DNA of 40,432 bases from an uncultured Thermoleophilia bacterium. Lineage in GTDB: Bacteria; Actinomycetota; Thermoleophilia; UBA2241. Made by a program: the position numbers and the translations under genes. The notes below the pieces were generated by a model, which did not search any database, had not been told where the DNA came from, and saw nothing but the letters and a program-made list of their open reading frames with translations. Below, in pieces: positions 6,777-33,262 of the stretch; within the stretch, counting starts at the first letter, position 1, and each line of letters starts with the position of its first letter. Location of the stretch: contig CAVQSP010000001.1 in assembly GCA_963715985.1 (NCBI GenBank), forward strand, positions 1-40,432, written 5' to 3'.

Positions 6777-7600
6777 TCACCCCAGGGCGGCAGCCGGTTC
6801 GCTGATGAGGATCTCCCCCTTGCCGAGCCAGCAGGTGTCGCCGCTGAAGCGCCGGTGGAGGCCGCCCCATCCGCGCTCCGGTGCAGGCACGCCCCGCTTC
6901 TCCAGGTGGGCCGCGTACACGCGCAGGAACGTCGGCTCGTAGGTGCAGGCGTAGAGAAACGTCGGCAGAAGCTTGAGCGGCTCATACGCGATGATCGTGC
7001 CCCTGGCCATCCAGGCGCCGGCGCGGATGCCCGCCCTGCCGAGCAGGAAGAGGGTGCCGCCCTTCATCTGCATGCCGACGAAGTCGCCGACCCGACCGCC
7101 TATGCTGATGAGACCACGCAGCATGCGCATCCCTACCTCGATCCCGGCGTCGCCGTCGATAGGATCTCGCCACCCCGCATGCCCACGGTGCTGCCACGGT
7201 AGGCCGCGCCGACCTGCCCGCCGGCCCTGCCGTGGACGTGGATGAGACCGCCGGTCATCTCCGCGCCCAGCCAGTCCGCGGCGTCACCGTCGACGGTGAT
7301 GGTCCCGCCGCTCATCGACGCTCCGAGATGCATCCCCGCGTTGCCGTGCACGGCGATGCTGCCCTGCGTCATGCCCCGGCCGATCCACTTGACCTGGGCG
7401 AGGTCTCCGTGCAGTTCGAGAGACGCGCTCCTCTCGCCCTCCACCTCGAAGAAGTCCCCGAGGCGCCTCTGCCGATTACCCAGAAACACCGGCAGAGCCA
7501 AGATGTCCGCGTGTGTCAGACCGGCGATGACGTCGGGCGAGAGCGCCTCCGCTTCGAGCGGGGTCGCCAGATCCTCTTTGAGAGTCGCTACGACGCTCAC
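6777..7600 (-). CDS. fwdC: Formylmethanofuran dehydrogenase subunit C, copy 1 (one frameshift near 7150)
   Basis: PLEAEALSPD, RLGDFFEVEG, repeated GxxMxGGxIxVxG beta-helix units, GAAYRGSTVGMRGG, terminal FSGD..GKGEILI. Confidence 0.88.
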
Positions 7601-7674
7601 CTTGCCGTCACCTCGCTCATGTCCGCGCCGAGGACACCCTCGACAGCCGGATCCTGACTCGTCGCTCGCGCGCT

Positions 7675-8980
7675 TCACTGGCCCCGGGCGGCGGCCCTGA
7701 GCGCGACCTCTTTCAGGAGTCCGCCGCATGACTTCCTCGTCGGTCGGGTATGGCGACTTGAGCGACGGCCGCACGTGCAGAGGGACCTCATCCATGCGGT
7801 AGACGGTGCCGGGGGCGCTGATGCCCGTCACGGCGGTGGTGATGTGCACGCGAGCGAGCTCGGCTGGTGTGCGTGACCTTCGGGTCCAGGACGATCGTCG
7901 GCACCCGCGCGCATGTGGTCGATGGCCGGCTTGGGCATCGTCGCCCCGGGGTCCGCGGCGAGCACCAGCACGGCATCGACCTCGCCGCGGGTGAGCAAGT
8001 CGATGGTGGTGTACTCGCCGGGGTTGTAGCGCGGATAGCCGCGGCTGAAATCGACCCCGAACGGATAGCCCGTCAGCCAGCTCGTGACGGCATCGGCGCC
8101 GGTCACGTTGCCGTGACCGCGCAGCGGCATCGCCACGAAGCGGGTGTAGTCGTTCATCTCCACACCCAGCGTGAGTACGGCGGCCGCATTCATGTACTTG
8201 CCGCGGGTCATGGTCAGGCCCATCCCGAAGAACATCGCCCCATAACGGGCGCTCTTCATGCGGTCCGCCAGGTCCTGGAGCTGCTCCAGCGTGAGACCCG
8301 TCTCCTCGAGGCACTGCTGGTCGACGCGACGGCCCTTGATGAGCGCACGCAAAGCCGTGAGAGCCTCGAAATCCTTGCCCGGGCGGATCTGAAGGAAGAT
8401 GTCGGCGACGCGCGCACTCGGCGTGTTGCGGATGTCGACGAGGACGACCGTCCGCCCTTTGCGGCCCTCGGGCGTGTACTTGCCCTTTCGGCATCACGGA
8501 GTAGCGGGTGAAGTGGCGAGGATGGCACTCCGACGGATTGGCGCCCCAGAGGATGACCAGGTCGGCCCGATCCCTGATCTCGCCCAGCGTGGCTTTTGAC
8601 CTACCGCCCAACTGGGCGGCCATTTCGCTAGGGCCGTGTCACAAGGATGAATGGCTGTCGACCACCCCTCCGAGCCGCTCCGCGAGCAGCACCGCCTCGC
8701 GCTGGGTCTCGCACGTCGTATTGCTCAGGCCGTAGATGAGAGGGTAGTGAGCATCGACGAGGATGTCCGCCGCCGCCGCCACCGCGGTATCGAGATCGGC
8801 GGGCTGTCCGTCGATGAGCGCCGCCGGATAGTGCGCCTCGGCATCATGGTTCGTGAACCAAGCCCCACCCAACGCGCACGCGTGCTTGGCCTTGACGATG
8901 CGATCCCCCTCGGTCTGCACCTCGATGTCGTCGCAGACGCAGCCGCAGAACGTACACACGGCGTTGGTGACGGTAGCCAT
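7675..8980 (-). CDS. fwdB: Formylmethanofuran dehydrogenase subunit B, predicted selenoprotein (UGA at 8639-8641; several frameshifts downstream)
   Basis: CTFCGCVCDD..HAC Fe-S motif, SSL[UGA]HGPS, TLGEIRDRADLVILWGANP..HPRH..RYS, PLRGHGNVTG, WLTGYPFGVDFSRGYPRYNPGE, GTVYRMD. Confidence 0.9.
8600..8632 (-). promoter_or_regulatory. Bacterial SECIS-like hairpin
   Basis: 3' of the UGA: stem GCCGCCC/GGGCGGU with apical loop AGUU starting 25 nt after the UGA; lower CCUA/UAGG pairing possible. Confidence 0.7.
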
Positions 8981-9048
8981 TGCTTACTCCTCAGCCGATC
9001 GATTGACCGATGTTATCGAGCGCCCGCACGGGGCGCAGCCCTGAATGC

Positions 9049-9224
9049 TCAGCCCAGTGCCCCGCCGAGGAAGCTGCCGCGGACGCGGCGCGGAAGCCAC
9101 AGATCGTCTCCGATCTCCTCCCACGGCAAGACATCCTCGTCGCGGGTACCTTGCGGTTCGCGCCGGGCAGGTTGAATCTGGGCTGTGTGTCGTTGGAAGC
9201 CCTGGATGTCTCCACGATCGTCAC
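9049..9224 (-). CDS. Possible small hypothetical protein between fwdD and fwdB (would need one frameshift)
   Basis: AAGGAG upstream; pieces ..ETSRASNDTQPRFNLPGANRKV and RDEDVLPWEEIGDDLWLPRRVRGSFLGGALG*; no family recognised. Confidence 0.3.
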
Positions 9225-9249
9225 GCTCCTTCACTACGTCTCGGACCGG

Positions 9250-9600
9250 TCACTGGCCCCGGCTCGTCTGGCCGGTGGCGGGCTCGACCTCGACCTCCCA
9301 GTTCTTCTGCGATGGCATCCCCGTGCCGTCCGTGTCTCCGCCCATGAGCTGACACGTGGGCGGCCCGTAGGGGACGAAGACCATGCCGGACGGGAGATCG
9401 CCCTCCGCGCAGCTGTACACGGCCTCGCCCCATTCAGTGCGCACGCGGACCGGATCGCCGGGCGCGAGGCCCATGTCCGCGAGATCCTGCGGATTCATGT
9501 CCAGAGTGCTGACCACCGACAGGTACTCATCCCTGAGCTTGCCCATGTTCTCCTGCTGGCCCTGCTTGATCGTCCGTCCGGCGACGAACACACAATGCAT
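9250..9600 (-). CDS. fwdD: Formylmethanofuran dehydrogenase subunit D (molybdopterin dinucleotide-binding)
   Basis: AGRTIKQG, MNPQDLADMGL..GDPVRVRTEWGE, GMVFVPYGP, TDGTGMPSQK; AAGGAGG RBS before ATG at 9600. Confidence 0.88.
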   Translation of the reverse strand: MHCVFVAGRTIKQGQQENMGKLRDEYLSVVSTLDMNPQDLADMGLAPGDPVRVRTEWGEAVYSCAEGDLPSGMVFVPYGPPTCQLMGGDTDGTGMPSQKNWEVEVEPATGQTSRGQ

Positions 9601-9830
9601 ACGGTCCTCCTTCGCCCCGGGAGCGTATCGGGTCAGAGCTTCGTGCTGCGAGATCGCAGAATGATACAGCATCGTTGCCGGCGGCAGAGCAGTGACACCG
9701 GATCGCCGGACGTGGGCCCGGCCGACGCCTGCCGGGCAGGGGGTCGCCCTCCTCGAGGGTCTGTGGCCTGAAGCTAGGAACGGCCTCGATCGGGAGGATG
9801 CCATCCGCTATATTTCTCTATAGTAGACCA

Positions 9831-9859
9831 TTGACAGTCAAGAGCTGGCTCCATAGAGT
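9831..9859 (+). promoter_or_regulatory. Sigma70-type promoter of the main C1 operon
   Basis: TTGACA (9831-9836), 17 nt, TAGAGT (9854-9859), with an AT-rich stretch upstream. Confidence 0.65.
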
Positions 9860-10074
9860 CGCCGGCGCGATACGAAGGCTACCCCTGCGGAGGGGATGGT
9901 CTGGCTGTTCCGAAGTTGCCGCACCCTGACAGCCGGGCTGCCGAGATGGTATCGGTGGGCCGGCTTTCGCGTCTCCGAGACCGGTCTCGAGGCGGAACGG
10001 AGCGAGGAGGTGAGAGGCCTCCCGGCGCCGCGCCGGTCGACGGCCAGTTCGTCGCCAGTGAGCGGCTTCACGGG

Positions 10075-10090
10075 AAACAAACAAACAAAC
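10075..10090 (+). repeat. (AAAC)4 tandem repeat in the operon leader
   Basis: AAACAAACAAACAAAC in GC-rich DNA. Confidence 0.9.
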
Positions 10091-10105
10091 GGCAATGTCT
10101 GCGTC

Positions 10106-10129
10106 GTGCCTGTGATAGGCATTTCTTTT
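10106..10129 (+). terminator. Leader terminator/attenuator-like hairpin with U tract
   Basis: GTGCCTG-TGA-TAGGCAT followed by TTCTTTT, 25 nt before the first ATG. Confidence 0.45.
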
Positions 10130-10153
10130 CACCAAACGGAAGGAGGGTCAGGT

Positions 10154-10357
10154 ATGCAGTGTTATGTGTGCGCGAAGGCCGGCAAACAGACCGAAGCGGT
10201 CGGCATCTGTATCGTGTGCGGCATGGGTCTCTGCATGGATCACGCGCTCCGTGAGGATGTCGATCTCTGGGAAGGGGGCTACCCGTTCCCGAGCCAGAAG
10301 GCCAAGAAGAAGTTGCCGCGCATCCTCTGTGCGGAGTGCAAAGCGGTGGTGGGCTGA
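10154..10357 (+). CDS. DUF2180-like small Cys-rich (Zn-ribbon) protein, 67 aa
   Basis: MQCYVC..AVGICIVCGMGLCMDH..GGYPFP..LPRILCAEC; AAGGAGG RBS. Family recognised from memory. Confidence 0.75.
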   Translation: MQCYVCAKAGKQTEAVGICIVCGMGLCMDHALREDVDLWEGGYPFPSQKAKKKLPRILCAECKAVVG

Positions 10358-10480
10358 GCGGAGCCGTCTCGGGCTGAACTGGCCAGCCGGACCGCGTATC
10401 AGCGGTGACGAGGGCCGGAAGGCGATGTCCACAGGTGTATCCACGATCGGGAATCGGTCAATCAAGGTACGGAGGTAGAG

Positions 10481-12013
10481 ATGTCGCTGTACGAGAAGAT
10501 GATCAACGAGGCAGTCGGCGCGACCAAAGCGGTGTTCGGTGTGAACAAGGCCAACCGCGGCGGCACTTTCAAGGTCACCGATGCCAAGCCGTACGTCGAC
10601 GCCGTGAACAAGATGACGGCGTACGAGGGGCAGTCCCAGGAAGTCATCGACCTGCACGTGAAGTCGGTCAACGCCCACTTCGACGTCATGACCTCCCTCA
10701 CGGAAACGGTGCGTCCTGAGGACGATCCGTTCGTCGAGCACTATCAGACGCCGCCGATCCTCGAGATCATGTATGAAGAGGATCCCGCCTTTAAGGCTTC
10801 GATGTGGAAGTTCATCGACGCCATCGCCGCCAACAAGGCGCTCGTCGGCCTCGAGGCTGCGCGCCGCTACGGCGGCATGTACGGCCCGACGTGCGTCGTG
10901 GACTTCGCGATGTCGGTCGGCTCGGTGCCCAACCTCGTGAACCAGATCCTGGTCCCGATGGACATCCCGGCCGACCACAAGAAGACCATCCTCGCCTGCA
11001 AGTCGTGGGGCATGAACACCTCCTACGGCCTCGCCGGTGCCTTCCGCGCCGCCGTCGAGTCGGGCAAGACCCTGGCCGACGCTGAGCAGGCCGAGGTCGA
11101 CATGCTGCAGTTCGTGTACCGCGAGCCCTCCGCCGCGCAGGCGCAGCTCATGGCCACCCACAACCTCGGCGGCCACGGCCCGCACAGCTCCTTCGATGTG
11201 GTCAAGTACATGGCTCAGTACAAGGAGGCCATGCGTCCCACCATCGTCGCCGCCATGAAGGCCGGCGTGCACTACGCCAACATCACCGCCGTGCCCGCCT
11301 ACTGCGTCGGCGACGTCGCCCACCACATCGCGCAGTCGGCGTACAACATGTTCAACGACGACATGGTGTTCGCGATCTACGAGGCCGTCACCGGCGTGCT
11401 CGAGAACACGCTGAACCGCGCCCTCAAGGCCGACGCCTTCAAGGGCCCCTACGATGTGCTCTCCGTCGCCACCGGCTCCACCGCCTGCGCGACTGCCTAC
11501 ATCCTCTGGAAGGACAGCTTCACGGTCCCGATGGTCATCGACCTGCTCAACAAGCGCTTCCACAACTACGCCGCCATGCATCCGGATCGCGGCGAGGCCG
11601 ACGAGCTGCACAACGTCGACTTCATGGACATCCTCAAGCGCGGCGAGCACATCCTCGACATCAAGCCGATCGGCGCCGGCGGCAAGGTCAAGGGCGTCGA
11701 GGTCGACCTGAGCACGGTCGACGGCAACGATGTCATCAGCAACCCGCAGCGCTACACGTATCCGGCCTGTGCCATCACCCAGCGCTTCGCCGCCCTGATG
11801 ACGCTGTCCGACTTCCCGTGCTTCCTGACGCCTGAGTGCACGACGGCGACCCTCATGACCAACGCCATCGCCGTCGCTCCTGGCACTCCTGGCGCCCCGG
11901 TTCGTGCCTGCAAGGACTGCGCGACGTGCGCCCTGATCAAGAGGAACGTCCCCATGGCGACCGGTCGTGGTTCCGGCGCCGTGGGCTACTGCCAGTGGAA
12001 CGTGGCCGTCTGA
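10481..12013 (+). CDS. DUF2193-like protein, 510 aa, with C-terminal CxxCxxC
   Basis: LYEKMINEA..RG..FKVTDAKPYVDAV, PEDDPFVEHYQTP, YGPTCVVDFA, KSWGMNTSYG, C-terminal CKDCATC; GGAGG RBS; intact ORF. Family recognised from memory. Confidence 0.75.
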   Translation: MSLYEKMINEAVGATKAVFGVNKANRGGTFKVTDAKPYVDAVNKMTAYEGQSQEVIDLHVKSVNAHFDVMTSLTETVRPEDDPFVEHYQTPPILEIMYEEDPAFKASMWKFIDAIAANKALVGLEAARRYGGMYGPTCVVDFAMSVGSVPNLVNQILVPMDIPADHKKTILACKSWGMNTSYGLAGAFRAAVESGKTLADAEQAEVDMLQFVYREPSAAQAQLMATHNLGGHGPHSSFDVVKYMAQYKEAMRPTIVAAMKAGVHYANITAVPAYCVGDVAHHIAQSAYNMFNDDMVFAIYEAVTGVLENTLNRALKADAFKGPYDVLSVATGSTACATAYILWKDSFTVPMVIDLLNKRFHNYAAMHPDRGEADELHNVDFMDILKRGEHILDIKPIGAGGKVKGVEVDLSTVDGNDVISNPQRYTYPACAITQRFAALMTLSDFPCFLTPECTTATLMTNAIAVAPGTPGAPVRACKDCATCALIKRNVPMATGRGSGAVGYCQWNVAV

Positions 12014-12059
12014 GCAAGCCGGCCTTCGGGGCGCGCTGAGGGCTGCGCGCACCGGATCA

Positions 12060-12092
12060 TGCGGGGGCCGGGCTGAAGGCCCGGCCCCCGCA
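12060..12092 (+). terminator. GC-rich hairpin after DUF2193 (terminator or mRNA stabiliser)
   Basis: TGCGGGGGCCGGGC-TGAAG-GCCCGGCCCCCGCA, 14-bp perfect stem, no U tract. Confidence 0.6.
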
Positions 12093-12129
12093 CGGACCAC
12101 CCTGTCACTACGTTCCTGGAGGTAACACA

Positions 12130-12900
12130 GTGCCACAACCCACACTCGCGAAGCGGGCGATCACGGAATTGATCGGCACCTTCGTGCTCGTGTTCCTGGG
12201 CACCGGCTCCGTGGTGACCGTCGTCACGAAACTCGGATTCCTGGGCCCGACCGGCGGTGAAGGCACCGGGCTCGTCCCGGGAGGCCTGCTCCTCATCGGC
12301 CTCGCCTTCGGCTTCGCCGTGCTCGTCATGATCTACGCCTTCGGGCACATCTCCGGCACCCACATCAACCCTGTGGTGAGTATCTGCCTGTGGGCCACCG
12401 GCCGTTTCCCGGCCAAGGACATGGTCACGTACGTCGTCATGCAGCTCATCGGCGCCACAGCGGCCTCCCTCATTATCGCGGCCATCTGGGGTCAGGCGGC
12501 GATCGACGCAGGTCTGGGCATCACCCTGCCTGGCACCGGTATCAGCTATGGGATAGCTATTCTGTGCGAGCTCGTGACGACCGCCTTCCTGGTCATCGTC
12601 ATCTGGGGCTCCGCGGTCGACAGCCGGGCGCCGAGCGGCTTCGCCGGCGTCGCCATCGGCATCGTGGTCGCCGCAGACATCATGGTGACAGGCCCCATCA
12701 CCGGCGCCTCGATGAACACCGCGCGTTCGTTTGGGCCGTTCCTGGCCGAGACGATCTTGGGCGGCAAGAACGCCGACGGCGCTGCCATCGCCGACTGGGC
12801 CAAGTTCCCCATCTACATCATCGGGCCGATCGTCGGCGGTCTCATCGCCGCGTTCGTCTACGACTACATCTCGGGTATCAAGAACAAGGCGGCGGAGTAA
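12130..12900 (+). CDS. MIP/aquaporin family channel (AqpM-like)
   Basis: ELIGTFVLVFLG, GHISGTHINPV, GASMNTARSFGP, YIIGPIVG; multiple hydrophobic helices. Confidence 0.93.
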   Translation: MPQPTLAKRAITELIGTFVLVFLGTGSVVTVVTKLGFLGPTGGEGTGLVPGGLLLIGLAFGFAVLVMIYAFGHISGTHINPVVSICLWATGRFPAKDMVTYVVMQLIGATAASLIIAAIWGQAAIDAGLGITLPGTGISYGIAILCELVTTAFLVIVIWGSAVDSRAPSGFAGVAIGIVVAADIMVTGPITGASMNTARSFGPFLAETILGGKNADGAAIADWAKFPIYIIGPIVGGLIAAFVYDYISGIKNKAAE

Positions 12901-13048
12901 GCGATTCCGGCGTCGCTCAAGCGTGGCCGAATCTGGCCGCGGAGACATGACACTGAGGCGGGCGGGGGCGTGACGCACGTCGCGGATTCCCCCGCCCGCG
13001 CTCATATCGGAGCCAGGTGGCTGCAAGCGAGAGTCTGGCGGTGATCGC

Positions 13049-13660
13049 ATGGGCGGGACCGGCATCACGCTGCTGGGCATATCCGGGAGTCCTCGCCTGA
13101 AGTCCACGCACTACGCCGTCAACGAAGCTCTCGAGTACGCGCGAGACCGTCACGGCGTCGAGACCGATTACTTCAGCGTGCACAAGAACGCCATCGGATT
13201 CTGCACGCACTGCGACTTCTGCGTCAGGAAGAAGCAGGGCTGCATCCAGGACGACGCCATGCGCGAGGTCTACGAGAAGATGCTTCGAGCAGACGCCTGG
13301 ATCCTCGGCAGCCCCGTCTACCAGGGGCAAGTCAGCGGTCAGATGAAGACGCTCCTCGATCGCTGTCGCGCTGTGGTGGCTCGTGACGTACACGCGTTTC
13401 GCAACAAGGTGGGGATGGGCATCTGCATCGGCGGTGACCGCAGTGGCGGCCAGGAGCCGTCGCTGCAGTCGCTGGTCGACTTCTATCTCATCAACCAGAT
13501 GATCCCCGTCGGGGGCGGCGCGTTCGGCGCCAATCTCGGCGCCGCGATATGGTCGCGTGACAAGGGCGCCGACGGAGTCAAGGCGGACGATGAGGGTCTG
13601 GCGGCCGTGCATCGCGCCGTGGACCGTCTCGTTCACGTGGCGCGACTTCTCCGCCCGTGA
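13049..13660 (+). CDS. Iron-sulfur flavoprotein (Isf/flavodoxin-like)
   Basis: GISGSPR, CTHCDFCVRKKQGC cluster motif, GSPVY, KTLLDR, RSGGQE. Confidence 0.85.
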   Translation: MGGTGITLLGISGSPRLKSTHYAVNEALEYARDRHGVETDYFSVHKNAIGFCTHCDFCVRKKQGCIQDDAMREVYEKMLRADAWILGSPVYQGQVSGQMKTLLDRCRAVVARDVHAFRNKVGMGICIGGDRSGGQEPSLQSLVDFYLINQMIPVGGGAFGANLGAAIWSRDKGADGVKADDEGLAAVHRAVDRLVHVARLLRP

Positions 13661-13683
13661 CCCGCTGTGAGGAGGTCCACGAA

Positions 13684-14250
13684 ATGACACTGAAGGTCGT
13701 GTGGGGCATCAGCGGTTCCGGCGACAAGATGCCCGAGACCGTCGCCGCCATGGTGGAAGTGCAGAAGCGGCTCGACGTGGAGATCACGGCGGCCGTCTCC
13801 ATCGCCGGGGTGCGGGTGCTGCGCTGGTACAAACTGACCGAGACGGTGGAGGAGATCGCCAAGTCGGTGAAGATCGAAAAGGACGCCAACTCACCGTTCA
13901 TCACCGGGCCTCTGCAGATCGGTCAGTACGATTGCCTTCTGGTGGCGCCCGCGACTGCGAACTCGGTGGCCAAGATCGCACACGGGATCGAGGACACCAT
14001 GCTGACCAACGCCGTCGGTCAGACCGCCAAGTCCACGACGCCGATCTACATCATGCCGGTCGACCTCCGCCCGGGGACGACAGTCACGATGCGCCCGGGC
14101 GGCGAACGCCTCGAGCTCAAGATCCGCGAGATCGACGTGGAGAACACGAACAAGTTGCGGACGATGGAGGGGATCACGGTGTTCGAATCACCCTCCGAGA
14201 TCGAGGGCATCCTCCGCGCCTGCGCGGAACGGCGGGACGCCGCCTCGTGA
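13684..14250 (+). CDS. afpA: Archaeal-type flavoprotein AfpA (dihydromethanopterin reductase family)
   Basis: VVWGISGSGD, LQIGQYD.LLVAPATANSVAKIAHGI.DT.LTNAV, PVD; H4MPT cluster context. Confidence 0.8.
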   Translation: MTLKVVWGISGSGDKMPETVAAMVEVQKRLDVEITAAVSIAGVRVLRWYKLTETVEEIAKSVKIEKDANSPFITGPLQIGQYDCLLVAPATANSVAKIAHGIEDTMLTNAVGQTAKSTTPIYIMPVDLRPGTTVTMRPGGERLELKIREIDVENTNKLRTMEGITVFESPSEIEGILRACAERRDAAS

Positions 14251-20955: not shown

Positions 20956-20970
20956 AGGGAAGCTCCTGCC

Positions 20971-23445: not shown

Positions 23446-23452
23446 CCCTCTC

Positions 23453-24342: not shown

Positions 24343-24355
24343 GGAGGCTGCGGCG

Positions 24356-25145: not shown

Positions 25146-26094
25146 GACAGGCTGCCGCCGTCGTCGAGAGGCTGAGGGCGGCCGCGGAGCCTCTGGGTGT
25201 GGCGGTATCCGAGCTCGAGAACGGTGCCACGGTCGTGGACGCCGGGGTGGAGGTCGACGGGACGCTGGAAGCCGGCCGGCTGTTTGCCGAGGTGTGCCTG
25301 GGCGGGCTGGCGGACGTCCAGTTCCGCGCAGCTCACCTCGAGGCCTCGTCCTCCCGGGCGTCGAGGTGAACGTGCACCGCCCGGTGCTCGCCTGCATGGC
25401 TTCTCAGTACGCCGGGTGGGCGCTCAACGTGCCTGCCACCGAGACTCCGAAGAAGTACTTCGCCATGTGCTCCGGGCCGGCCAGGGCGCTGTACCGTGGC
25501 GACCCGATCTTCGCCGACATCGACTACCGCGATCCGGCGACCGTGGCGGTGCTGACGCTGGAGGCGGACCGCCTGCCGCTCGCTGGAGGTGGCGGCTGGG
25601 TCGCCGGCAAGTGCGGGGTCGCGACAGACGCGCGTGATGCTGCTGGTGGCCCCCACCGCCAGCCTCGTGGGCTCCGTGCAGATCGCGGCGCGCATCGTGG
25701 AGACCGGGCTCCACAAGATGCACGAGGTGGGATTCGACATCGACACCGTTCGCTCCGGCTTCGGCTCGTGCCCCCTGGCTCCGGTGGCGGCCGACGATCT
25801 CGCGGCCATCGGGCGCACCAACGACGCGGTCCTCTACGGCGGCCGCGCCTGGTACACGGTCGAGACCGACGATGCGCTCATCGAGAGCGTCATCGAGCGC
25901 CTGCCCTCGGCGCGTCGAGCGACTACGGTGTGCCGTTCGGGGAGCTCTTCCGCCGGTACGGTGGCGACTTCTACAAGATCGACCCGCTGCTCTTCAGTCC
26001 CGCCGAGATCACCATCACCAACGCGGCGAGTGGCAGGACCTTCCACGCCGGCCACGTCGACACGGACGTGCTGCGCGCATCGTTGTTCGCGTGA
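25129..26094 (+). CDS. mch: Methenyl-H4MPT cyclohydrolase (frameshifted)
   Basis: [78 protein letters not shown]. Confidence 0.92.
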
Positions 26095-26964
26095 AGGTCG
26101 CTATCCTGGGACAGAACAGGAGGCTGGCATACCGAGAGCCTTCGCGAGGCGCTTGCCCGGCGCGGGATCGCGGCGGAGTGCTACCCGGTGACGCAGCTGA
26201 CGGCGCGGGTCACCGAGAGGCCGCGCCTGACGGCCGGGGCGGTGCCGCTCGACGACTGCGACGTCGTGTTCGTGCGCGCCATCCCGACGGGGTCGCTGGA
26301 GCAGGTGATCTTCCGCATGGACGCCTTGCGGATGCTCGAGCACGACGGAGTGAGGGTCGTCAATTCGGCGCAGGCCATCGAGCACGGCGTCGACAAGTAC
26401 TACACGTCGGCGCGACTGCACGACGCCGGTCTGCCGACGCCCCGCACCGTCGTCGCCGAGCGCTTCGACGACGCGCTGGCGGCCTACGACGAGCTCGGCG
26501 GTGACGTGGTGGTCAAGCCCCTCTTCGGCTCCGAGGGCAGGGGCATGGTCCGGGTCTCCGATGCGGACACCGCGTACCGCGTGTTTCGCGCTCTCGAGCT
26601 GGGCCGCTACATCTTCTGTGTGCAGGAGTTCGTGTCCCACGGCTGCGAGGATATCCGCGTCTTCGTCGTCGGCGGGCGCGTCATCGGAGCGATGCTGCGT
26701 CGCGGGTCGGGGTGGAAGACGAACGCGGCTCAGGGCGCCACGGGGGAGCCGATCGAGCTGGATGACACGCTCGTCAATCTGAGCGTGCGTGCGACGCAGA
26801 TCGTGGGCGCCGAGCACGCCGGCGTCGACATCCTGCCCTGCGACGACGGCAGCTACAGCGTGATCGAGGTGAACACCATCCCTGGCTGGCGCGCCTTGCG
26901 CGCCGCCACCGGCGTCGATGCGGCGCAGTGCTTGGTGGACCACGTGCTCGAGGGGATGTCGTGA
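26091..26964 (+). CDS. RimK-family alpha-L-glutamate ligase (orf5/MyfA/MptN-type; frameshift near the 5' end)
   Basis: [53 protein letters not shown]. Confidence 0.87.
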
Positions 26965-27853
26965 AGCGACTGAACGGCGTCGAGATCGCCTGGGCGGCGC
27001 AGCTGGCGTGTCTGTTCGAGGTGAGCGTCGCGAAGGCCGGCAACGTGTCGCGGAGCGCGGCCTTTGCCGACGCGCGCTTCGAGGACTTTCGCGGCCAGCG
27101 CCGTCGCTATCGGGCCGGCGCTTCGCGACGCCGGATCGGCCAGCGTGGGCGACCATGGTGGCAAGGGCGGTCGCCGACACGCATCGCCTGGTGGCCACCA
27201 ACACCAATCTCGGCATCATCCTGCTGCTCGCACCGCTGGCGGCCGCTGCGGCGAGGGGGGGCACCGAAGGCGGCCTGCGTGCAGCGCTGCATCGGGTCCT
27301 CGCGGACCTGACCGTGGAGGACGCGCGCCTGGCCTACGGAGCCATCCTTGCCGCTTCTCCGGCCGGGATGGGCGCTGTCGACGAACATGACGTCCATGAA
27401 GGAGAGGTGCTCGTTACTCTGCGCGAGGCCATGGACGCCGCGCGCGACCGTGATGCCGTCGCCCGCGAGTTCGTCACGGATTTCGCGATCACATTCTCGT
27501 TCGGTGCCGAGACTCTGCAACGCGTCTGGCAGGACGGTGCCCGGTTCTCGGAAGCAGTCGTGATGGCGTTCATCACGATCCTTGCGCACGTGCCCGACAC
27601 CCTGATCGCGCGCAAGAACGGGACCGCCGTCGCCGAAGACGTGTCGCGCCGCGCCGCGCGCGTGCTGGATGCCGGGGGCAGCTTCAGCGCGCAGGGCGGA
27701 ACGCTGCTGGCCGAGCTGGCGCTCGACCTGGCGGACGACGCTCACACGCTGAATCCGGGTACGACCGCCGATCTGGTGGCCGCCTCATTGTTCGTGTTCC
27801 TGACGGAGGGCGGGCTGCTGGGCGATGTGCCCGCCCTCACGGCGCGTTGGTGA
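26961..27853 (+). CDS. citG: CitG-family protein (orf7-type; frameshift near 27090)
   Basis: AC..EV...K.GNV, NTNLGIILLLAPL, PDTLIARK.G, NPGTTADL. Confidence 0.85.
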
Positions 27854-28601
27854 CTCGCCCGTTCTCGGAGCGCACGGCGTCGATGTCCGTCGCCATGATC
27901 CAGGCACGATGAAGCGCCGTCGCCAGCAGCACGCCGTCGGCGCCGGCGGCGGCGAGCGCCCGCAGGTCCTCGGGGGTGCGGACGCCGCCGCCGCTGACCA
28001 GGTGCAGGCCTGGAAACGCGGTGCGCGCGGCCCGCAGCGTGTGCAGATCCGGGCCCGCTCCCGTCCCGACCTGCGGCAAAGCCAGCAGGATGACGTCGTT
28101 CACACCCTCCGCGGCGAGCCTCTCAAGGACGTCCAAGGGCGACCGACCGGCGAACGCGGGGCACGCGCTGAGCACGCCGCGCTCGCCCACGTCGATGCTG
28201 ACGAGTACCCGCTCGGCCGGCAGCGCGGCGCGGATGGCACGCAGGGCCTCGAGTCCGGGCAGCGTCTCTGTGCCGACGATGATCCGAGCGGCGCCGGCCG
28301 CGAGGAGGCGCGACGCTCCCTCCGCATCGGCGATCCCGGCGTCCACCCAGGGACTCAGCCCCGAGCGCGGTCGCGCAACGCGCGGACGACGTCGAAGTGA
28401 TCGCCTGTGCCGGCGATGGCATCCAGATCGGCGACATACACCGCCGGCCCGCCGCAGATGCGGGCCAGCGCCTCCGCGATCCGCACCGGCTCACTGCCGT
28501 CGACCACGCTGCTGCGCACCGCGCGGTAGTGCTCGCCGCCGACCGCGCAACCCTTGCACCACGCGTCCGCCCATCAGGTCTAGCACCGGTATGGCGTCCA
28601 C
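27837..28601 (-). CDS. HisA/HisF-like TIM-barrel protein (orf17-type; frameshifted)
   Basis: From GTG at 28601: DAIPVLDLMGGRVV.G..G, Y.ADLDAI, VDAG, IVGTET, SID, VGTGAGPD, GGGVR..EDL, ATALH; GAAGGGAG RBS. Confidence 0.8.
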
Positions 28602-29635
28602 GTCGACTCTCCCTTCTGCGATCCTCGTGCACGAGTACGTGACCGGGGGCGGGTGGCCGGAGCCGGAGCTCCCGGGCGCTCTGGGCGACGAGGCCGCGGC
28701 GCTCGTGCGGGCGCTGCTGGCCGATCTGCGTGCCTGGGGTCGGTTTCCCGTCGTCGCGACGCACGATCCTCGTTGGCGACGAGAGCCGCTTGCGGTCGAT
28801 CGCGTCGTCGATCTCTGCTCGGAAGTCTACCCGACGGCGCTGCTCAGCCTCGCCCGCGAGTGCGGCGCAGCCATCGTCGTCGCGCCTGAGGGCGACGGCG
28901 TCCTCGAACGTCTCAGCTCGCTGATGCTGGACGCCGGCGTCTGTCTGCTGGGCAGCTTGCCGTGGGCGGTGGCGGTGGCTGCCGACAAGTACGAGTGCCA
29001 CCGCCGCTTCGCGCGGGCCGGCCTGCCCACGCCGGACACGGTGCGCATCGCGCCGGCCGCCGCTGCCATGGCGGCCGACAGGCTCGGCTACCCGGTCGTC
29101 GTCAAGCCCCTCGACGGCGCCGGCTGTGACGGTGTCTGCCTCGCCGGCGACGAGAGCCAGCTCGCAGCGGCTCTCCGGCAGCCGGCGCTGAGTCGGGCGG
29201 GCGATGGTGCTCGTGCAGCGCTATGTGGAGGGCCGTGCGGCCAGTGTGTCGCTCGTCGCCACCACGGGACGCACCACAGTGCTGAGCCTCAACGCGCAGA
29301 GCGTGCACGCCGGCATCCCGTTCGTCTACCATGGCGGAGTCGCAGGGATATCTCATCCACGGCGGGCCGAGGCTTGCGAGCTCGCGCAGAGGGCGGTCGC
29401 CCTCGTGCCTGGACTGCGAGGGTACGTTGGAGTCGACATGGTGCTCGGCGAGCAGGAGACCTGGCTGATCGAGATCAACCCACGACCGACCACGTCGTAC
29501 GTGGGCCTTCGCCGCGTCATCGACCTCAACATGGCCGCGGCGATCTGGCACGCCTGTCGCGACGGCTCTCTGCCCGCCGTCGTGCACGTGGCCTCGCCCT
29601 CGCCCCACGGAGAGAGGGGGACGGATGGTCTCTGA
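28591..29635 (+). CDS. mfnD: ATP-grasp ligase, MfnD/orf1-like (frameshift near 29200)
   Basis: ILVHEYVTGGG, VAPE.DG.L, AADK, VVKP.DGAG, LSLN.Q, GL.GYVGVD, IEINPR.TTSY. Confidence 0.78.
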
Positions 29636-30686
29636 GCCGCTCGTCACAGTCGGCTGGGACGTGGGCGGCGTCCAGATCAAGGCCGCCCGCGTGGAGTCGT
29701 GCGCCGGCGTCACGCGCTGCGTGCAGACGACGGTGCGCCCGTTCGAGGTGTGGCGCGGACGCGAACGGCTCCCGCAGATGCTGCAGGATGTGGCGCGCGA
29801 GCTTCGGGTCCGCCCGACCGTGCCGCTCGCGCTCACCATGACGGCAGAGCTCTCGGATGCCTTTCGGAGCAAGAGGGAAGGCGTGCTGTTCGTGATGGAC
29901 GCGTTCAAAGCGGCGCTCCCGGGGAGCCGCGTCTCTGTGCTCGACTCCAGCGGTGAGCTCGTCGCTGTGGGCGAGGCTCGCGGGCGGCCGCTCGATTTCG
30001 CGGCCACGAATTGGGTCGCGTCGGCCCTGTTCGCGGCGTCGCGGGTGGACGCGTGCATCCTCATTGACGTGGGTAGTACGACCACCGACATCGTTCCGAT
30101 ACGGGAGGGCCGTCTGGCCTGCGAGGGCCGCACCGATCTCGCCCGGCTCTCCGCCGGCGAGCTCGTGTACACCGGTGTGCTGCGCACGAATCCCAATACC
30201 TTGACGTCATCTGTGCCTGTGCGCGGCCGTCCTTGCCGGGTCGCCGCGGAGCAGTTCGCGATCATGGCGGACGCCTACGTCCTGCTCGGACGACTGCGCG
30301 AGGACGAGTACACGTGCCCCACGCCAGACGGTCGAGGCACGTCCCGCGAGGAGTGTGGTGAGCGTCTCGCGCGCCTCGTGTGCGGCGACCGCGAAATGCT
30401 GAGCGAGACGGAGGTCGTGGGCGTGGCGCGCTACGCGGTGGAACGCCAGCTGCAGGCCGTGAGCGAGGGAGTGCTGCAGGTCCTGTCTCGCTGGGACGCC
30501 GACGGAGCCCCCGTGGCGCCGGTCGCACCGGCAGGCGCAGGCGCGTTCCTTGCGGCGGAGGTCGCAGGACGGCTCGGTCTCGCCGTGCTGCCCGCCGGCA
30601 GCGTCTGGGGCGAGGAAGGGGCGATGCTCCCGGCCGCCGCCGCCGCTCATCTCCTGGCGGCTCGCCTTGAGGCGGCGCCGAGGTGA
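29625..30686 (+). CDS. mfnF: MfnF/orf9-like hydantoinase-family protein
   Basis: GWDVGG..IK, LTMTAELSDAF..K.EGV, AATNW.A, DVGSTTTDI, GELVYTGV.RT, RLARLVC.D. Confidence 0.85.
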   Translation: MVSEPLVTVGWDVGGVQIKAARVESCAGVTRCVQTTVRPFEVWRGRERLPQMLQDVARELRVRPTVPLALTMTAELSDAFRSKREGVLFVMDAFKAALPGSRVSVLDSSGELVAVGEARGRPLDFAATNWVASALFAASRVDACILIDVGSTTTDIVPIREGRLACEGRTDLARLSAGELVYTGVLRTNPNTLTSSVPVRGRPCRVAAEQFAIMADAYVLLGRLREDEYTCPTPDGRGTSREECGERLARLVCGDREMLSETEVVGVARYAVERQLQAVSEGVLQVLSRWDADGAPVAPVAPAGAGAFLAAEVAGRLGLAVLPAGSVWGEEGAMLPAAAAAHLLAARLEAAPR

Positions 30687-31342
30687 TCGACGCGGTCGTC
30701 AAGGTCGGCGGCAGTCTCGGGCGCGGTCCGGGCCTGGCCGCGCTGGGCGCGCGCCTCGCTGCGCTCGGCCGGGAGCACCGACTCCTGCTGGTGCCCGGTG
30801 GCGGCGCCTTCGCCGACCTCGTCAGGGAGCATGAGCCGCGCTTCGGCCTGCGGCCCAGCACGGCGCACTGGATGGCGGTCCTCGCCATGGACCAGTACGG
30901 CTATCTCCTCGGCGACCTGGTGCCCGGGTGCGGGCTCGTGCGCACGCTCGAGGAGGCGGAAGCATGTGCCCCGGGCGCCGCTGCCGTCCTCCTGCCATAC
31001 GAGCTCCTGCGGCGCGAGGACGCCCTTCCTCACAGCTGGTCCGTGACGTCGGACTCCATCGCCGCATGGCTGACTCAGATGGTGGGAGCGAACCTGCTGG
31101 TGCTTCTGAAAGACAGCCGTGGCATGGCGAGCCTGGCGCACGCGGTGTCTGGCCTTCCGTCCGCCGAGTTGAGCGTCGCCGAGCTCGCCGCCGCCGAGGG
31201 CGTCGACGGCCATCTGGCAGAGCTGGCCGGCGACGCGACCTTCCGCCTGTGGATGATCGACGGCGAACGCCCCGAGCGGCTGGCGGAGCTGCTCGAGACG
31301 GGTCGCACGGAAGGGGTCAGGCTTGCGCGATCAGGGATTTGA
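30683..31342 (+). CDS. mfnE: Amino-acid-kinase-family protein, MfnE/orf21-like
   Basis: VVKVGGSL, VPGGG.FAD.VR, AHWMA..AM.Q, LPHSW.VTSDSIA. Confidence 0.85.
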   Translation: MIDAVVKVGGSLGRGPGLAALGARLAALGREHRLLLVPGGGAFADLVREHEPRFGLRPSTAHWMAVLAMDQYGYLLGDLVPGCGLVRTLEEAEACAPGAAAVLLPYELLRREDALPHSWSVTSDSIAAWLTQMVGANLLVLLKDSRGMASLAHAVSGLPSAELSVAELAAAEGVDGHLAELAGDATFRLWMIDGERPERLAELLETGRTEGVRLARSGI

Positions 31343-32027
31343 GCCGCTGCACGGCGTCGGGGTCGATCGCGCCGTCCCGGCGGCCGTCGTGGCAGGCGGC
31401 GCCGCGAAAGCCGACGATGTCCGGCGCCAGCTCGTGCAGGAGGGGCACATCGGCGGCGCGCAGCGAGCCGGCGAGCGCGCACAGCAGACGGGCCTCCCGG
31501 CAGCACGCGACGAAGCTCTCGAGTTCCACGGCGCTGAGCTCGGTGAGGAGAGTGCCTCCGGACTTCTGGGCCGTGTCGATCATGCAGCCATCCGCACCGG
31601 CCTCGGCGGCGACGGCCGGCAGCTCGCGCGGCGGGAGAGACCCGGTCCTGCGCGCGTCCGCATAGGCGGCGGCCATGACGCGCACTGCCGGGTCAGCGTC
31701 GTGGGCGGCGCGGCACACGCCGGCAAGCAGGGCAAGGGCCTGGTCGTGGTCTCGCGGACCCAGGAGCCCCACCTTGACGTACTGCACGCCGCAGCCGGCG
31801 GCGCCTGCTGCCGCGAGGGCGGCCATGCCGGGCAGATTGGGGACGTCACCGATGGCCACACTCACGGGGATGGCCGCCGGAGTGGCCCGGCGCACGGCTC
31901 GGATCACGTGCGGGACGGCGGCGCCCAGCGACCCTTCGCGGGGATCCTTGACGTCCACGATGTCCGCGTGTCCGGCCACCGCTGCATCCACTTCGTGCTC
32001 GCCGACTACGCTGATGAGCAGGTCCAC
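31317..32027 (-). CDS. mfnB: (5-formylfuran-3-yl)methyl phosphate synthase
   Basis: LLISV...E, ADIVDVK.P.EGSLGA, S.AIGD, YVKVGL, YAD, MIDT..K, ALAGSL, GFRGAAC. Confidence 0.9.
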   Translation of the reverse strand: MDLLISVVGEHEVDAAVAGHADIVDVKDPREGSLGAAVPHVIRAVRRATPAAIPVSVAIGDVPNLPGMAALAAAGAAGCGVQYVKVGLLGPRDHDQALALLAGVCRAAHDADPAVRVMAAAYADARRTGSLPPRELPAVAAEAGADGCMIDTAQKSGGTLLTELSAVELESFVACCREARLLCALAGSLRAADVPLLHELAPDIVGFRGAACHDGRRDGAIDPDAVQRLKSLIAQA

Positions 32028-32104
32028 GACGTTGTTCCCGGCCTTTCCTCGCCAGCGGCCAGACTACATGCGCCCCCGACCGTCGCACAAGCCGGGGGCT
32101 GAGC

Positions 32105-33262
32105 GTGCCGACCGCAGGCCAGAGGAGTCCATCGGCGCTCGAGGGGGCCGCCGTCGAGACCGCGACCGGCTTGATCTTCACGGTCAAGGGCATCACGCAC
32201 CCTCCGGACCGCGTCGTGGCCTACCTGCGGTACGTGCCCGACCAACGCGGCGACCGCGTGCGCGACCAGAAGCACTATCGCCGCGTGTACGGCGTCGCCG
32301 AGCAGCAGGAGGAGCTGCAGGCTCGCGGCCTCCGGTACGTCACCGACGATCCCGACCTCGGCGTGCCGGTGGAAGCCGTGCCGTGGCGGGATGTCACGCG
32401 CGTGTACGATCCGCGCGAGCGGTTCCGGAGGCTGCGCGCCGAGGGGCCGGACGACCCCCTCACGGCAGATGCACTGGGGCTTCTGGAGCTGCTGCGGGAC
32501 GCCGCGGGGGTGTCGCCGGAGGCGCTTGGGTTGACCGGCTCCCTGCTGTTCGACCTCCACGCCCCCTCCTCCGACATCGACGTCGTGGTGTACGGGGAGG
32601 ACGCCTGCCGCGACGTCCACGCTGCGCTGGGACGTTTGCTTGGCGACCCTGCGTCGGGAGTGGCGCGCCCCGACCGCGACGAGCTCGCGGCGATCCACGC
32701 GGTGCACCGCGTGGAGACGCCGCTGTCGCCTGCGGACTTCGCGCGACTGCAGGCCGGCAAGGTCAATGAAGGGCGGTTTGCCGGCCGGCCGTACTTCGTG
32801 CGCTTCGTGAAGCTGCCGGCGGACGTGCCGGAACGATACGGCGACCCGCGCTTCCTGGCTGTCGGCACGGCAGCCGTGGAGGCGCTGGTCATCGATGACC
32901 GCGACGCCCTCTTCACCCCCTGCCGCTACGCGGTGGGAGAGGCAAAGTCGCTGGCCGGGAGCCGCCTGCACGATCTGCGCGAGGTCGTGTCGTTCCGCGG
33001 GCGCTTTGCCGACCAGGCACGCGCCGGCCGGCGCGTGCGCGCCCTGGGTGAGGTGGAGCGTGTGGTCTGGCGCGACCGTCCCGAGACGACGCGTCTGGTC
33101 GTGGGGGGCCGGCCGGGCGACTATCTGCTGGCGCTGGAGGACGAGGGCGACTCTCCGGGGGCCGGCCATGGCGGCGAGCCCGGGCCGGGCGAACGCGCTG
33201 TGCCCAGGGCGGCCGATGACGGGCCGGGATGCCTGCCCCAAGGTGCGCAGCCAGGGCCGTGA
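32105..33262 (+). CDS. Predicted nucleotidyltransferase (Pol-beta superfamily, archaeal COG1665-like)
   Basis: F.VKG..HPP.R..AYLRYVP, GLTGS.L......SDIDVVVYG, V.SFRG.F..QA. Confidence 0.7.
   Translation: MPTAGQRSPSALEGAAVETATGLIFTVKGITHPPDRVVAYLRYVPDQRGDRVRDQKHYRRVYGVAEQQEELQARGLRYVTDDPDLGVPVEAVPWRDVTRVYDPRERFRRLRAEGPDDPLTADALGLLELLRDAAGVSPEALGLTGSLLFDLHAPSSDIDVVVYGEDACRDVHAALGRLLGDPASGVARPDRDELAAIHAVHRVETPLSPADFARLQAGKVNEGRFAGRPYFVRFVKLPADVPERYGDPRFLAVGTAAVEALVIDDRDALFTPCRYAVGEAKSLAGSRLHDLREVVSFRGRFADQARAGRRVRALGEVERVVWRDRPETTRLVVGGRPGDYLLALEDEGDSPGAGHGGEPGPGERAVPRAADDGPGCLPQGAQPGP

Follow-up and report, generated by a model that had tools for sequence, protein, structure and literature searches.

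A genuine C1 island on methanofuran and methanopterin, with a predicted selenocysteine-containing FwdB, in an uncultured Thermoleophilia bacterium

An uncultured soil and sediment actinobacterium carries a real C1 island that runs on 'archaeal' cofactors and connects CO2 with the formaldehyde level. The island occupies positions 6777–33262 of a 40,432-nucleotide contig, the whole of which was analysed and is referred to here as 'the window'. It encodes the four steps that link CO2 with methylene-H4MPT—Fwd, Ftr, Mch and an MtdA/B-type dehydrogenase—together with most of the genes for methanopterin and methanofuran biosynthesis. The account that we consider probable, taken as a whole, is that of a genuine island with a selenocysteine (Sec)-type FwdB, in which the many breaks in reading frame are artefacts and the enzymes are used oxidatively beside a folate route. 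Bacterial islands of this type have been described before, and this one is an ordinary new member of the group.

Methanofuran/methanopterin C1 genes were confirmed across the block by Pfam and NCBIfam scans of the window ORFs, with intact orthologues from relatives scanned alongside to back the gene calls. Features lie on the plus strand unless marked (−). A tRNA-Val(GAC) gene (6442–6517) marks the upstream edge; in the relative G013 the same tRNA comes after a DEAD helicase. Inside, after a fwdC-B-D cassette described below, comes a module of DUF2180, DUF2193 and aquaporin genes. The small DUF2180 protein (9896–10357; 119.9 bits) probably starts near 10079; the 93 aa ORFs of relatives align to 10079–10351. 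The DUF2193 protein (10481–12013; 746.9 bits) is the most conserved of the island (90–97% amino acid identity to five relatives), and a family member from Methanococcus voltae has been shown to bind [4Fe-4S], according to excerpts of PMC12375889. Family scans identify next an aquaporin-like MIP-family channel (12130–12900) and a flavodoxin-like NAD(P)H-dependent FMN reductase (13049–13660), followed by the archaeoflavoprotein AfpA (13657–14250; TIGR02699, 219.7 bits, cut-off 192.45) and a beta-ribofuranosylaminobenzene 5'-phosphate (beta-RFAP) synthase of the MptG type (14247–15218; TIGR00144, 169.5 bits, cut-off 113.5). The DUF447 flavin-reductase-like protein (15213–15800, −; family scan) is presumably of the OrfY type. 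The product of mtd (15935–16799; Mpt_N, 107.8 bits), an MtdA/B-type NAD(P) methylene-H4MPT dehydrogenase, scores 275 bits against Methylorubrum extorquens MtdA (1LU9).

An ATP-grasp ligase (16799–17986; family scan) precedes an intact fwdA (18265–19965; TIGR03121, 695.9 bits, cut-off 393) and the gene for GTP cyclohydrolase MptA (19978–20955; TIGR00294, 284.6 bits, cut-off 220). Then come two proteins found by family scan, one combining DUF6513 with a pterin-binding, dihydropteroate-synthase-like domain (20971–22317) and the other DUF1464 (22314–23445); ftr (23447–24342; 420.7 bits for the G020 orthologue); the island copy of fwdC, type I (24343–25140), of which a 33-bit piece alone was detected where relatives have a 300 aa gene; and mch (25145–26094), read in four frame pieces. 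A RimK-family glutamate ligase (26188–26964; rimK_fam, 206.5 bits) is MptN-like, scoring 238 bits with the MptN model, under its cut-off of 350. The CitG-like protein (26874–27853; family scan) we take to be of the Orf7 type, and the labels orf5/7/17/20/22/Y for accessory genes are assumed in the same way. The methanofuran genes comprise an MfnD-like ATP-grasp ligase (28537–29635; family scan and relatives' orthologues), an MfnF-like TIGR03123 'H4MPT-linked C1 transfer pathway protein' (29625–30686; 327.6 bits, cut-off 244), an MfnE-like protein of amino-acid-kinase fold (30683–31342; family scan) and MfnB, the 4-HFC-P synthase (31317–32027, −; Pfam, 257.6 bits). The last island gene (32105–33262) encodes a conserved 385 aa protein without a family match, 64–72% identical in four relatives.

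A preliminary description of this DNA had given the same C1 genes and boundaries, including MptA and AfpA and a bacterial NAD(P)-type Mtd alongside Fwd, and all of these agree with the scans. So does its statement that mer, mtr, mcr and fae are missing from the window: none of these families occurs among the 50 ORFs scanned. It had also called the cluster 'self-contained', which holds in part: mfnA/C-type genes and a FwdF/G-type electron-input subunit, like FwdE, were not seen in the window. Three features had escaped it: the disrupted reading frames, the codon for selenocysteine and the presence of a second fwdC (24343–25140).

The cassette has its own copy of fwdC (type II; 6777–7705, −). 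Its TIGR03122 pieces score 166.8 and 78.4 bits, and the orthologue in locus L045 is intact (285 aa, 264.7 bits). Beside it lie the cassette fwdB (type II; 7712–8980, −) and fwdD, which encodes a molybdopterin dinucleotide-binding barrel (9250–9804, −; Molydop_binding, 41.5 bits; 77.3 bits with the FwdD model, under the exception cut-off of 175). FwdB scores 389 and 368 bits against the solved FwdB chains 9sfi_Q and 5t5i_B, and 58 bits against the FhcB chain 6s6y_B. It retains the N-terminal Fe-S cysteines and the catalytic Sec/Cys-His pair, written as Cys-His in 63 of 67 FwdB homologues of the fetched loci and as TGA-His in the window and in L045. On this sequence evidence FwdB is predicted, as the preliminary description had proposed, to belong to a true metal-pterin dehydrogenase. 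The Sec-type fwdC-B-D cassette has replaced the Cys-type fwdD-B usual in the genus, and is found at three different positions in three species.

The TGA of fwdB (8639–8641) is in frame at the catalytic Cys/Sec-His position, within the motif SSL-U-HGPS, and is kept in five species, fragmented many-contig assemblies among them. UHxP is the motif given for the FwdB selenoprotein family in Table 1 of PMC13188914. A candidate bacterial SECIS hairpin (8596–8620, −; GCCGCCC-AGUU-GGGCGGU) follows the UGA at a distance of about 20 nt on the 3' side. Across the five species all 35 of its cells are paired, and one pair shows a compensatory GC>UA change. The covariation statistic is weak, 98 of 500 shuffles doing as well, and the sequence that forms the hairpin is also conserved coding sequence. 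The host genome encodes selA (523 bits), selB (328 bits) and tRNA-Sec. FwdB is thus a predicted selenoprotein, whose catalytic UGA would be read by SelA, SelB and tRNA-Sec.

The island is genuine and conserved across the lineage. Positions 9874–33144 are collinear with five genomes of the same genus at 74–80% nucleotide identity; mch occurs in 10 of 24 sampled genomes of the genus and FwdB in 19 of 54. The closest loci come from uncultured Thermoleophilia, which bears out the actinobacterial host proposed earlier; the configuration then described as novel proves not to be unusual for the lineage, and similar sets have been published. Thermoleophilia MAGs have been described with Fwd and mch (PMC7438021), Wood–Ljungdahl actinobacteria with fwdDBA-ftr-fwdC (PMC7325909), and some bacteria as retaining fwdD and afp (PMC5020050).

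Within the 26 kb of the island at least 20 single-base indels disrupt about nine genes: none of fwdB, the two fwdC copies, mtd, the DUF1464 gene, ftr, mch, the CitG-like gene or mfnD can be read through in one frame, each needing two to four. The cassette fwdC switches frame near 7140–7190. The cassette fwdB has single-base insertions near 8470, 7917 and 7868, mtd has one near 16385, the DUF1464 gene one near 22607, ftr two near 23757 and 24158, the CitG-like gene two near 27094 and 27158, and the mfnD-like gene one near 29203; mch has insertions near 25148 and 25636 and deletions near 25350 and 25912, and the island fwdC, with at least five insertions, is almost unreadable. At 14 indel sites that were aligned, the window alone departs from all relatives (12 one-base insertions, two deletions). 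Gaps occur in six of the 32 short-read contig pieces listed, and pieces across intact genes are gap-free. Five of the gapped pieces (96–99% identical) fall on independently found frameshift sites, one contig being without single bases at 24449, 24490, 24529 and 24562 in the island fwdC; the sixth is a contig of run X3 (96% identical). The short-read contigs are 96–99% identical to the window rather than identical, and sister strains with intact genes are a possible source of them.

Could these breaks be real, and the C1 genes pseudogenes in a decaying island of this strain? Their number invites the thought, as does the stretch at 22–26 kb, which is among the nine densest of 4,361 four-kb windows for frameshift-like events. 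However, equally dense clusters occur on contigs C9, C10 and C14, and such events are genome-wide (560, or 12.9 per 100 kb, against 14.8 on the island contig and none in two clean relative loci). The adjoining trpE is in four frame pieces and acsB is split as well. Aligned frame pieces contain no premature in-frame stop, the Sec codon aside, and no large deletion; after frame correction the pieces match intact genes in conservation (e.g. mtd, 96% and 88% to G006). We therefore give decay very little credence. Because trpE is broken too, the events are genome-wide and short-read contigs lack the extra bases, the breaks are most likely single-base assembly errors, and the genes intact in the cell. 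Still harder to credit is a chimeric or mis-binned contig, with an island foreign to its flanks or genome. The window is one whole 40-kb contig in a bin with 7.29% contamination (completeness 88.8%), and the junction of cassette and DUF2180 (~9807–9874) occurs, as assembled, in this contig only. Yet in two of the five collinear genomes, G013 (on a 2-Mb contig) and G021, the island is bordered by the same flanks, the DEAD helicase with tRNA-Val and the trp genes; the GC content (70%) matches every other contig; and the bin holds the Sec machinery that FwdB needs. The contig, for which chimerism had been raised as a check, is not obviously chimeric.

Selenocysteine forms of Fwd reportedly occur in Methanopyrus and Methanocaldococcus. 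FwdA, B, C and D of the Methanothermobacter wolfei FwdABCDFG complex (PDB 5T5I), a tungsten/molybdenum formylmethanofuran dehydrogenase, all have counterparts in the island, whose FwdB aligns end to end with the M. wolfei chain and keeps the N-terminal cysteines and a U-H-G-P catalytic motif. In contrast to the methanogen systems, no FwdF/G polyferredoxin or FwdE was seen in the window; the host is a bacterium, and its Sec decoding is of the bacterial kind, in which the UGA is followed at once by a hairpin; the downstream dehydrogenase, of MtdA/B type, uses NAD(P) rather than F420 or H2; and Mer was not found. The H4MPT-linked formaldehyde-oxidation island of methylotrophic Proteobacteria, as in M. 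extorquens (Fae, MtdA/B, Mch, FhcABCD and orf genes) has in common with it the clustering of Ftr/FhcD, Mch, an MtdA-type dehydrogenase, MptG and AfpA, and accessory genes of the RimK, CitG, DUF447, DUF1464 and TIGR03123 types. It differs in that the Thermoleophilia genome yielded no Fae and its island includes an archaeal-type MptA. Nearer in taxonomy, Candidatus Hakubella from Hakuba Happo is likewise actinobacterial, with CODH/ACS, Fwd-like ABCD and Ftr and without FwdE/F/G, and its fwdDBA-ftr-fwdC order is that of the Cys-type relatives of the window; the passages available from that study (PMC7325909) report no methanopterin biosynthesis genes, which the Thermoleophilia island has. In the Hakubella comparison FwdA is only 55% identical to L075, and the Thermoleophilia window has the Sec-type cassette. 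MENDH-Thermo, a MAG of the order UBA2241, is likewise a Thermoleophilia with mch and fwdAB, interpreted as serving formate use or detoxification; excerpts of PMC7438021 describe cofactor synthesis steps as missing there and give no gene order.

Two other readings concern what the enzymes do. In one, Fwd acts like the Fhc formyltransferase/hydrolase of methylotrophic Proteobacteria and releases formate, a possible substrate for Fhs; relatives show the order fwdD-B-A ... ftr-fwdC, which is similar to that of fhc operons (extracts of PMC7325909). We find this quite improbable: the low FhcB score stands against the high ones for archaeal FwdB, and the redox site, the Fe-S cysteines and FwdD are all kept, so the enzyme is not of the hydrolase type. 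Costly selenocysteine would, besides, make little sense in a non-redox subunit. The other is a reductive module, in which CO2 is attached to methanofuran by Sec-type Fwd at no cost in ATP, and the C1 unit, reduced to methylene-H4MPT, feeds biosynthesis or the folate and CODH/ACS route. The genuine metal-pterin FwdB of selenocysteine type fits it, as do the failure to find fae in the genome (88.8% complete) and a complete bacterial CODH/ACS set (acsA, acsB, acsC, acsD, acsE, RACo and cooC) equipping the cell for reductive acetyl-CoA synthesis. But neither mer nor mtrH was found in the genome, leaving no known carrier of methylene-H4MPT further; Fhs and FolD, encoded along with MetF, already supply the formyl-to-methylene steps; and the genus carries the module as an accessory trait, with FwdB in 19 and ACS in 41 of 54 genomes. 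We regard a reductive role as unlikely.

We favour instead a module that operates beside, not inside, the complete tetrahydrofolate-based Wood–Ljungdahl pathway, with flux that is most likely oxidative. The chemistry is reversible, which makes direction the weakest step of this explanation. Sec-type Fwd enzymes are known best from CO2-reducing methanogens, which counts against it, as do the searches that found neither fae in this genome nor a ferredoxin-type FwdF/G subunit in the window, and Fae (in 4 of 19 FwdB-positive against 10 of 35 FwdB-negative genomes of the genus) tracks the module poorly, so that co-occurrence does not speak for a formaldehyde-oxidising role. In the oxidative direction, formaldehyde would condense with H4MPT, spontaneously in this host and via Fae in some relatives, after which oxidation to CO2 would proceed by way of methenyl-H4MPT, formyl-H4MPT and formyl-MFR. 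Run in this way, the module would provide the cell with NAD(P)H and with low-potential electrons at FwdB.

The C1 island (window 6777-33262) encodes the enzymes of an H4MPT and methanofuran pathway together with genes for making both cofactors. Read 5' to 3', a tRNA-Val at its upstream edge is followed on the minus strand by fwdC (6777-7705), fwdB and fwdD, and then by genes for a DUF2180 protein, a DUF2193 protein, a MIP channel and an FMN reductase. Next come AfpA, a beta-RFAP synthase-family protein and DUF447; mtd, an ATP-grasp ligase and fwdA; mptA, a DHPS-like gene and DUF1464; and ftr, a second fwdC (24343-25140, plus strand) and mch. The last stretch comprises MptN-like, CitG-like, MfnD-like, TIGR03123/MfnF-like and MfnE-like genes, MfnB, and a conserved 385-amino-acid protein of no assigned family (32105-33262), which closes the island. 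Between the CitG-like and MfnD-like genes, no gene could be called with confidence in some 0.7 kb (27853-28537), whichever strand is read. On the tRNA-Val side the island is flanked by adenosine deaminase, PAS-GGDEF protein, epimerase and DEAD helicase genes, and at its far end by the trp operon. Pfam and NCBIfam scans recovered every gene class listed in the preliminary description, with the same boundaries. FwdA, MptA, AfpA, the beta-RFAP synthase family and TIGR03123 pass curated cut-offs; MptN, MfnB, MfnD, MfnE and the DHPS-like protein pass Pfam or subfamily models only.

The genome bin to which the island belongs amounts to 4.35 Mb in 22 contigs (70% GC; completeness 88.8%, contamination 7.29%), and the window is the whole of one of these, contig C1. 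The loci nearest to it by FwdA (74-89% identity) are titled uncultured Thermoleophilia, Actinomycetes or Actinomycetota, which bears out the actinobacterial host guessed from the sequence at the outset. Remoter FwdA matches come from Anaerolineae (61-69%) and Candidatus Hakubella (55%), and those at 42-52% from Planctomycetota, Acidobacteriota and several archaeal groups.

The island is real and well conserved. The synteny comparison proposed in the preliminary description found positions 9874-33144 collinear with five genomes of the same genus, at 74-80% nucleotide identity. The same DEAD helicase and trp flanks surround the island in two of its relatives, G021 and G013, in the latter on a 2-Mb contig and with a tRNA-Val after the helicase, as in the window. 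The junction between the minus-strand fwd genes and DUF2180 (~9807-9874) is unique to the window contig. Judged by the shared flanks, the contig is not an obvious chimera. Among sampled genomes of the genus mch is present in 10 of 24 and FwdB in 19 of 54, and the island is thus an accessory yet recurrent trait.

The formylmethanofuran dehydrogenase (Fwd) complex had been described as of the metal-pterin type, and the proteins uphold this: the redox site (Sec/Cys-His), the iron-sulfur cysteines and FwdD are all present. FwdA scores 695.9 bits on TIGR03121 (cut-off 392.75), FwdC 166.8 bits on TIGR03122 (cut-off 130.65), and FwdD 41.5 bits on Pfam Molydop_binding (cut-off 26.8) but only 77 bits on the NCBIfam exception model (cut-off 175). 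The cysteines of the N-terminal [4Fe-4S] motif of FwdB align with those of the solved chain 9sfi_Q, its best structural match (389 bits), in which a non-standard residue X occupies the position aligned with the selenocysteine site; 5t5i_B follows at 368 bits. The Fhc complex of methylotrophic Proteobacteria is a formate-releasing hydrolase. The window complex differs from it in having a selenocysteine redox site and FwdD, and we considered a formyltransferase/hydrolase of the Fhc type and set it aside as very unlikely on the grounds that Sec-His and FwdD are present and that the match to FhcB of the hydrolase type (6s6y_B) reaches no more than 58 bits, where the two FwdB chains give 368-389 bits. 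Since FwdB keeps its redox site and FwdD accompanies it, the first or last step of the route would be that of a true dehydrogenase. No ferredoxin-type family, and so no FwdF/FwdG polyferredoxin, was found in the 50 window open reading frames scanned.

Of the new details of the island, the selenocysteine in FwdB is the most useful. Read through three frameshifts, the window fwdB has a TGA at 8639-8641, the same TGA as in the intact orthologue used for comparison, locus L045 of the same-genus genome G018. There the protein reads ...VVDSHSSL-U-HGPSEM..., with the TGA at residue 114. At this catalytic position, 63 of the 67 FwdB homologues in the fetched loci have Cys followed by His. The window and L045 are the two with TGA-His, and two more, both from Isosphaeraceae, have Ser or Arg. 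The TGA recurs in three further genomes (G054, G012 and G042; 74-90% identity), many-contig assemblies among them, which brings the species to five in all; G042 encodes FwdB of both types. Genes for selenocysteine decoding are in the genome: selA (523.4 bits) and selB (328.4 bits), both above cut-off, adjoin each other on contig C13, and a tRNA-Sec(TCA) lies on the same contig at C13:139538. A candidate SECIS element, a hairpin of 7 bp closed by an AGUU loop, starts ~20 nt 3' of the UGA. Its pairing holds in 35 of 35 cells over the five species, with one compensatory change of GC to UA, but is equalled by 98 of 500 shuffles and overlaps conserved codons; scanned at Rfam gathering scores, the window gave the tRNA as its sole match and no SECIS family. 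Elsewhere in the genome, a second molybdopterin oxidoreductase (C10:180672-182087, minus strand) has one in-frame TGA within a 1489-amino-acid open frame, and is probably a selenocysteine formate dehydrogenase-like enzyme.

In most relatives, fwdD-fwdB stands immediately upstream of fwdA and encodes a FwdB with a Cys-His active site (528 bits on TIGR03129). The window and G018 are devoid of this pair; they have instead a fwdC-fwdB-fwdD cassette of the Sec type, on the opposite strand. Such cassettes (window 6758-9623; G018 contig 14, locus L138, 25494-28351; locus L132, 668-3467) occupy three sites in three species: the interval between tRNA-Val and DUF2180 in the window, that between mptN and the CitG-like gene in G018, and a place beyond the last island gene in G054. 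In G018, ~150 nt of window sequence (26829-26977) matches both flanks of the cassette. A quick FwdB tree groups the Sec-type proteins with Acidobacteriota and Planctomycetota sequences (SH-aLRT 86, on a long branch), and makes the Cys-type proteins sister to those of Anaerolineae (SH-aLRT 99).

As given, the contig splits about nine genes over frames: mch into four pieces; ftr, fwdB and the CitG-like gene into three each; and mtd, DUF1464, mfnD and the cassette fwdC into two each, while the island fwdC is nearly undetectable. Several lines of evidence indicate that these breaks are very probably errors in the assembly consensus, not decay. At 14 aligned indel sites—12 one-base insertions and two one-base deletions—the window alone deviates from every relative, with 10-11 relatives compared at most sites and L045 only at the three in fwdB. 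Short-read contigs from public runs, 96-99% identical to the window, show single-base gaps that coincide with independently located frameshift stretches, at 15940-16449, 22445-22664, 23516-23958, 24009-24652 (five gaps) and 25031-25264. Such gaps occur in six of the 32 short-read pieces listed, the sixth being a more distant contig, and in none of the listed pieces over intact genes. Each run other than X1 contained a fraction of 0.10 or less of the sampled words. Once frame-corrected, the pieces are as conserved as intact genes. Just outside the island, trpE (38815-40356, minus strand) lies in four frame pieces where G013 has an intact 531-amino-acid reading frame; assembly errors therefore strike housekeeping genes, too. 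A frameshift near C11:145049 also breaks up acsB; rpoB is intact.

A codon-usage frame HMM counted 560 frameshift-like events across the genome (12.9 per 100 kb) and 14.8 per 100 kb on the window contig, figures that are undercounts, as it finds six events in the window where homology finds ~20. Applied to the loci of relatives, the same HMM found none in G020 (20.8 kb) or G013 (32 kb), one in G006, and three each in G021 and G024. Besides the window, events cluster densely at C9 109-111 kb and 150-159 kb, C10 195-197 kb and C14 88 kb. Two other procedures were set aside: gene picking by GC3 only, which chose wrong strands in places and was replaced by the HMM; and a blastn census of gaps not a multiple of three (37 insertions, 15 deletions), made noisy by nearby paired gaps in divergent stretches, to which the site alignments were preferred. 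These single-base errors distort whatever is read off the assembly gene by gene, pseudogene counts and completeness included.

Every Thermoleophilia locus of sufficient length has the module of DUF2180, DUF2193, MIP channel and FMN reductase (window 9896-13660) inside its C1 island; in other phyla, none was found within 10 kb of fwdA. No island protein is better conserved than DUF2193, whose amino acid identity is 90-97% compared with 75-84% for FwdA. A single-sequence AlphaFold model of it was unusable (mean pLDDT 36.1), and the ESM Atlas held no usable match. The relevant parts of a 2025 study (PMC12375889) show [4Fe-4S] binding in the family, and report that 91% of methanogen homologues adjoin a MIP or porin gene.

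The island would supply both cofactors and the four enzymes that link CO2 and methylene-H4MPT. Whole-genome searches proposed in the preliminary description turned up a complete CODH/ACS cluster (acsA, acsB, acsD, acsC, RACo, cooC and acsE; C11:141634-152150, or L126 3634-14150), of the bacterial type with AcsE and RACo. They drew a blank for mer (TIGR03555, 0 matches), for the methyltransferase (MtrH, 0 matches) and, the genome being 88.8% complete, for fae (0 matches). Fhs and FolD are adjacent on C13, MetF is on C11, and 41 of the 54 genomes in the genus have ACS. Formate can reach acetyl-CoA through a tetrahydrofolate route that is complete by itself, and nothing known carries methylene-H4MPT further; we therefore read the island as a parallel, accessory module. 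The reading we favour, and consider somewhat probable, is that it oxidises formaldehyde to CO2, yielding NAD(P)H and low-potential electrons. The NAD(P)-type Mtd, the Mch and the Ftr of the H4MPT formaldehyde-oxidation pathway are all encoded in the island. In methylotrophs this pathway also has Fae, the formaldehyde-activating enzyme, for which the genome gave no match. Fae also tracks FwdB poorly across the genus (14 of 54 genomes; 4 of 19 FwdB-positive and 10 of 35 FwdB-negative). In the smaller sample, mch was missing from several of the genomes with Fae, to which bin incompleteness may contribute.

The main rival to oxidation, a reductive, ATP-saving entry of CO2, is unlikely: the dehydrogenase-type FwdB and the complete acetyl-CoA pathway speak for it, but the archaeal H4MPT methyl branch of the Wood–Ljungdahl pathway has Mer and a methyl-H4MPT methyltransferase, and neither was found in this genome. 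More improbable still is that the island forms the front end of a hybrid Wood–Ljungdahl route, in which the selenocysteine Fwd would take up CO2 without ATP, the H4MPT enzymes would reduce it to the methylene level, and the product would be handed over to folate and CODH/ACS through a postulated link. The MtdA enzyme of M. extorquens is active on both carriers, and the MtdA-like dehydrogenase is one candidate for that link; the unusually conserved DUF2180-DUF2193 iron-sulfur pair, with a channel of its own, is another. For formaldehyde oxidation as for its rivals, direction, substrate and electron partner are inferences that gene content cannot settle.

The preliminary description placed the novelty of the island in its configuration, a blend of 'archaeal' and 'bacterial' parts. 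That claim is not borne out; the mix is a pattern already on record. In the passages that concern us, an opinion article (Chistoserdova 2016, PMC5020050) counts Actinomycetes among the bacteria with H4MPT/methanofuran genes and notes that certain phyla of bacteria retain fwdD and afp; Merino et al. (2020, PMC7325909) describe Wood–Ljungdahl actinobacteria with fwdDBA-ftr-fwdC and without fwdE/F/G; and McDaniel et al. (2020, PMC7438021) mention mch and fwdAB in a Thermoleophilia genome of the order UBA2241. In the literature searched, we found neither a Sec-type Fwd reported from Thermoleophilia nor a tie between DUF2193 and H4MPT genes, and no report of a within-genus replacement of a Cys by a Sec cassette, of the full cofactor gene set for this lineage, or of the embedded DUF2180-DUF2193-MIP module. 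With this island, a complete methanofuran/methanopterin module and its cofactor genes are documented in a widespread, uncultured actinobacterial genus of soils and wetlands that also has the acetyl-CoA pathway, and the view that 'archaeal' C1 reactions are common among anaerobic bacteria gains a well-documented example. Since Cys-type and Sec-type Fwd have been exchanged within it, this one genus offers a natural experiment on what the enzyme gains from selenium.
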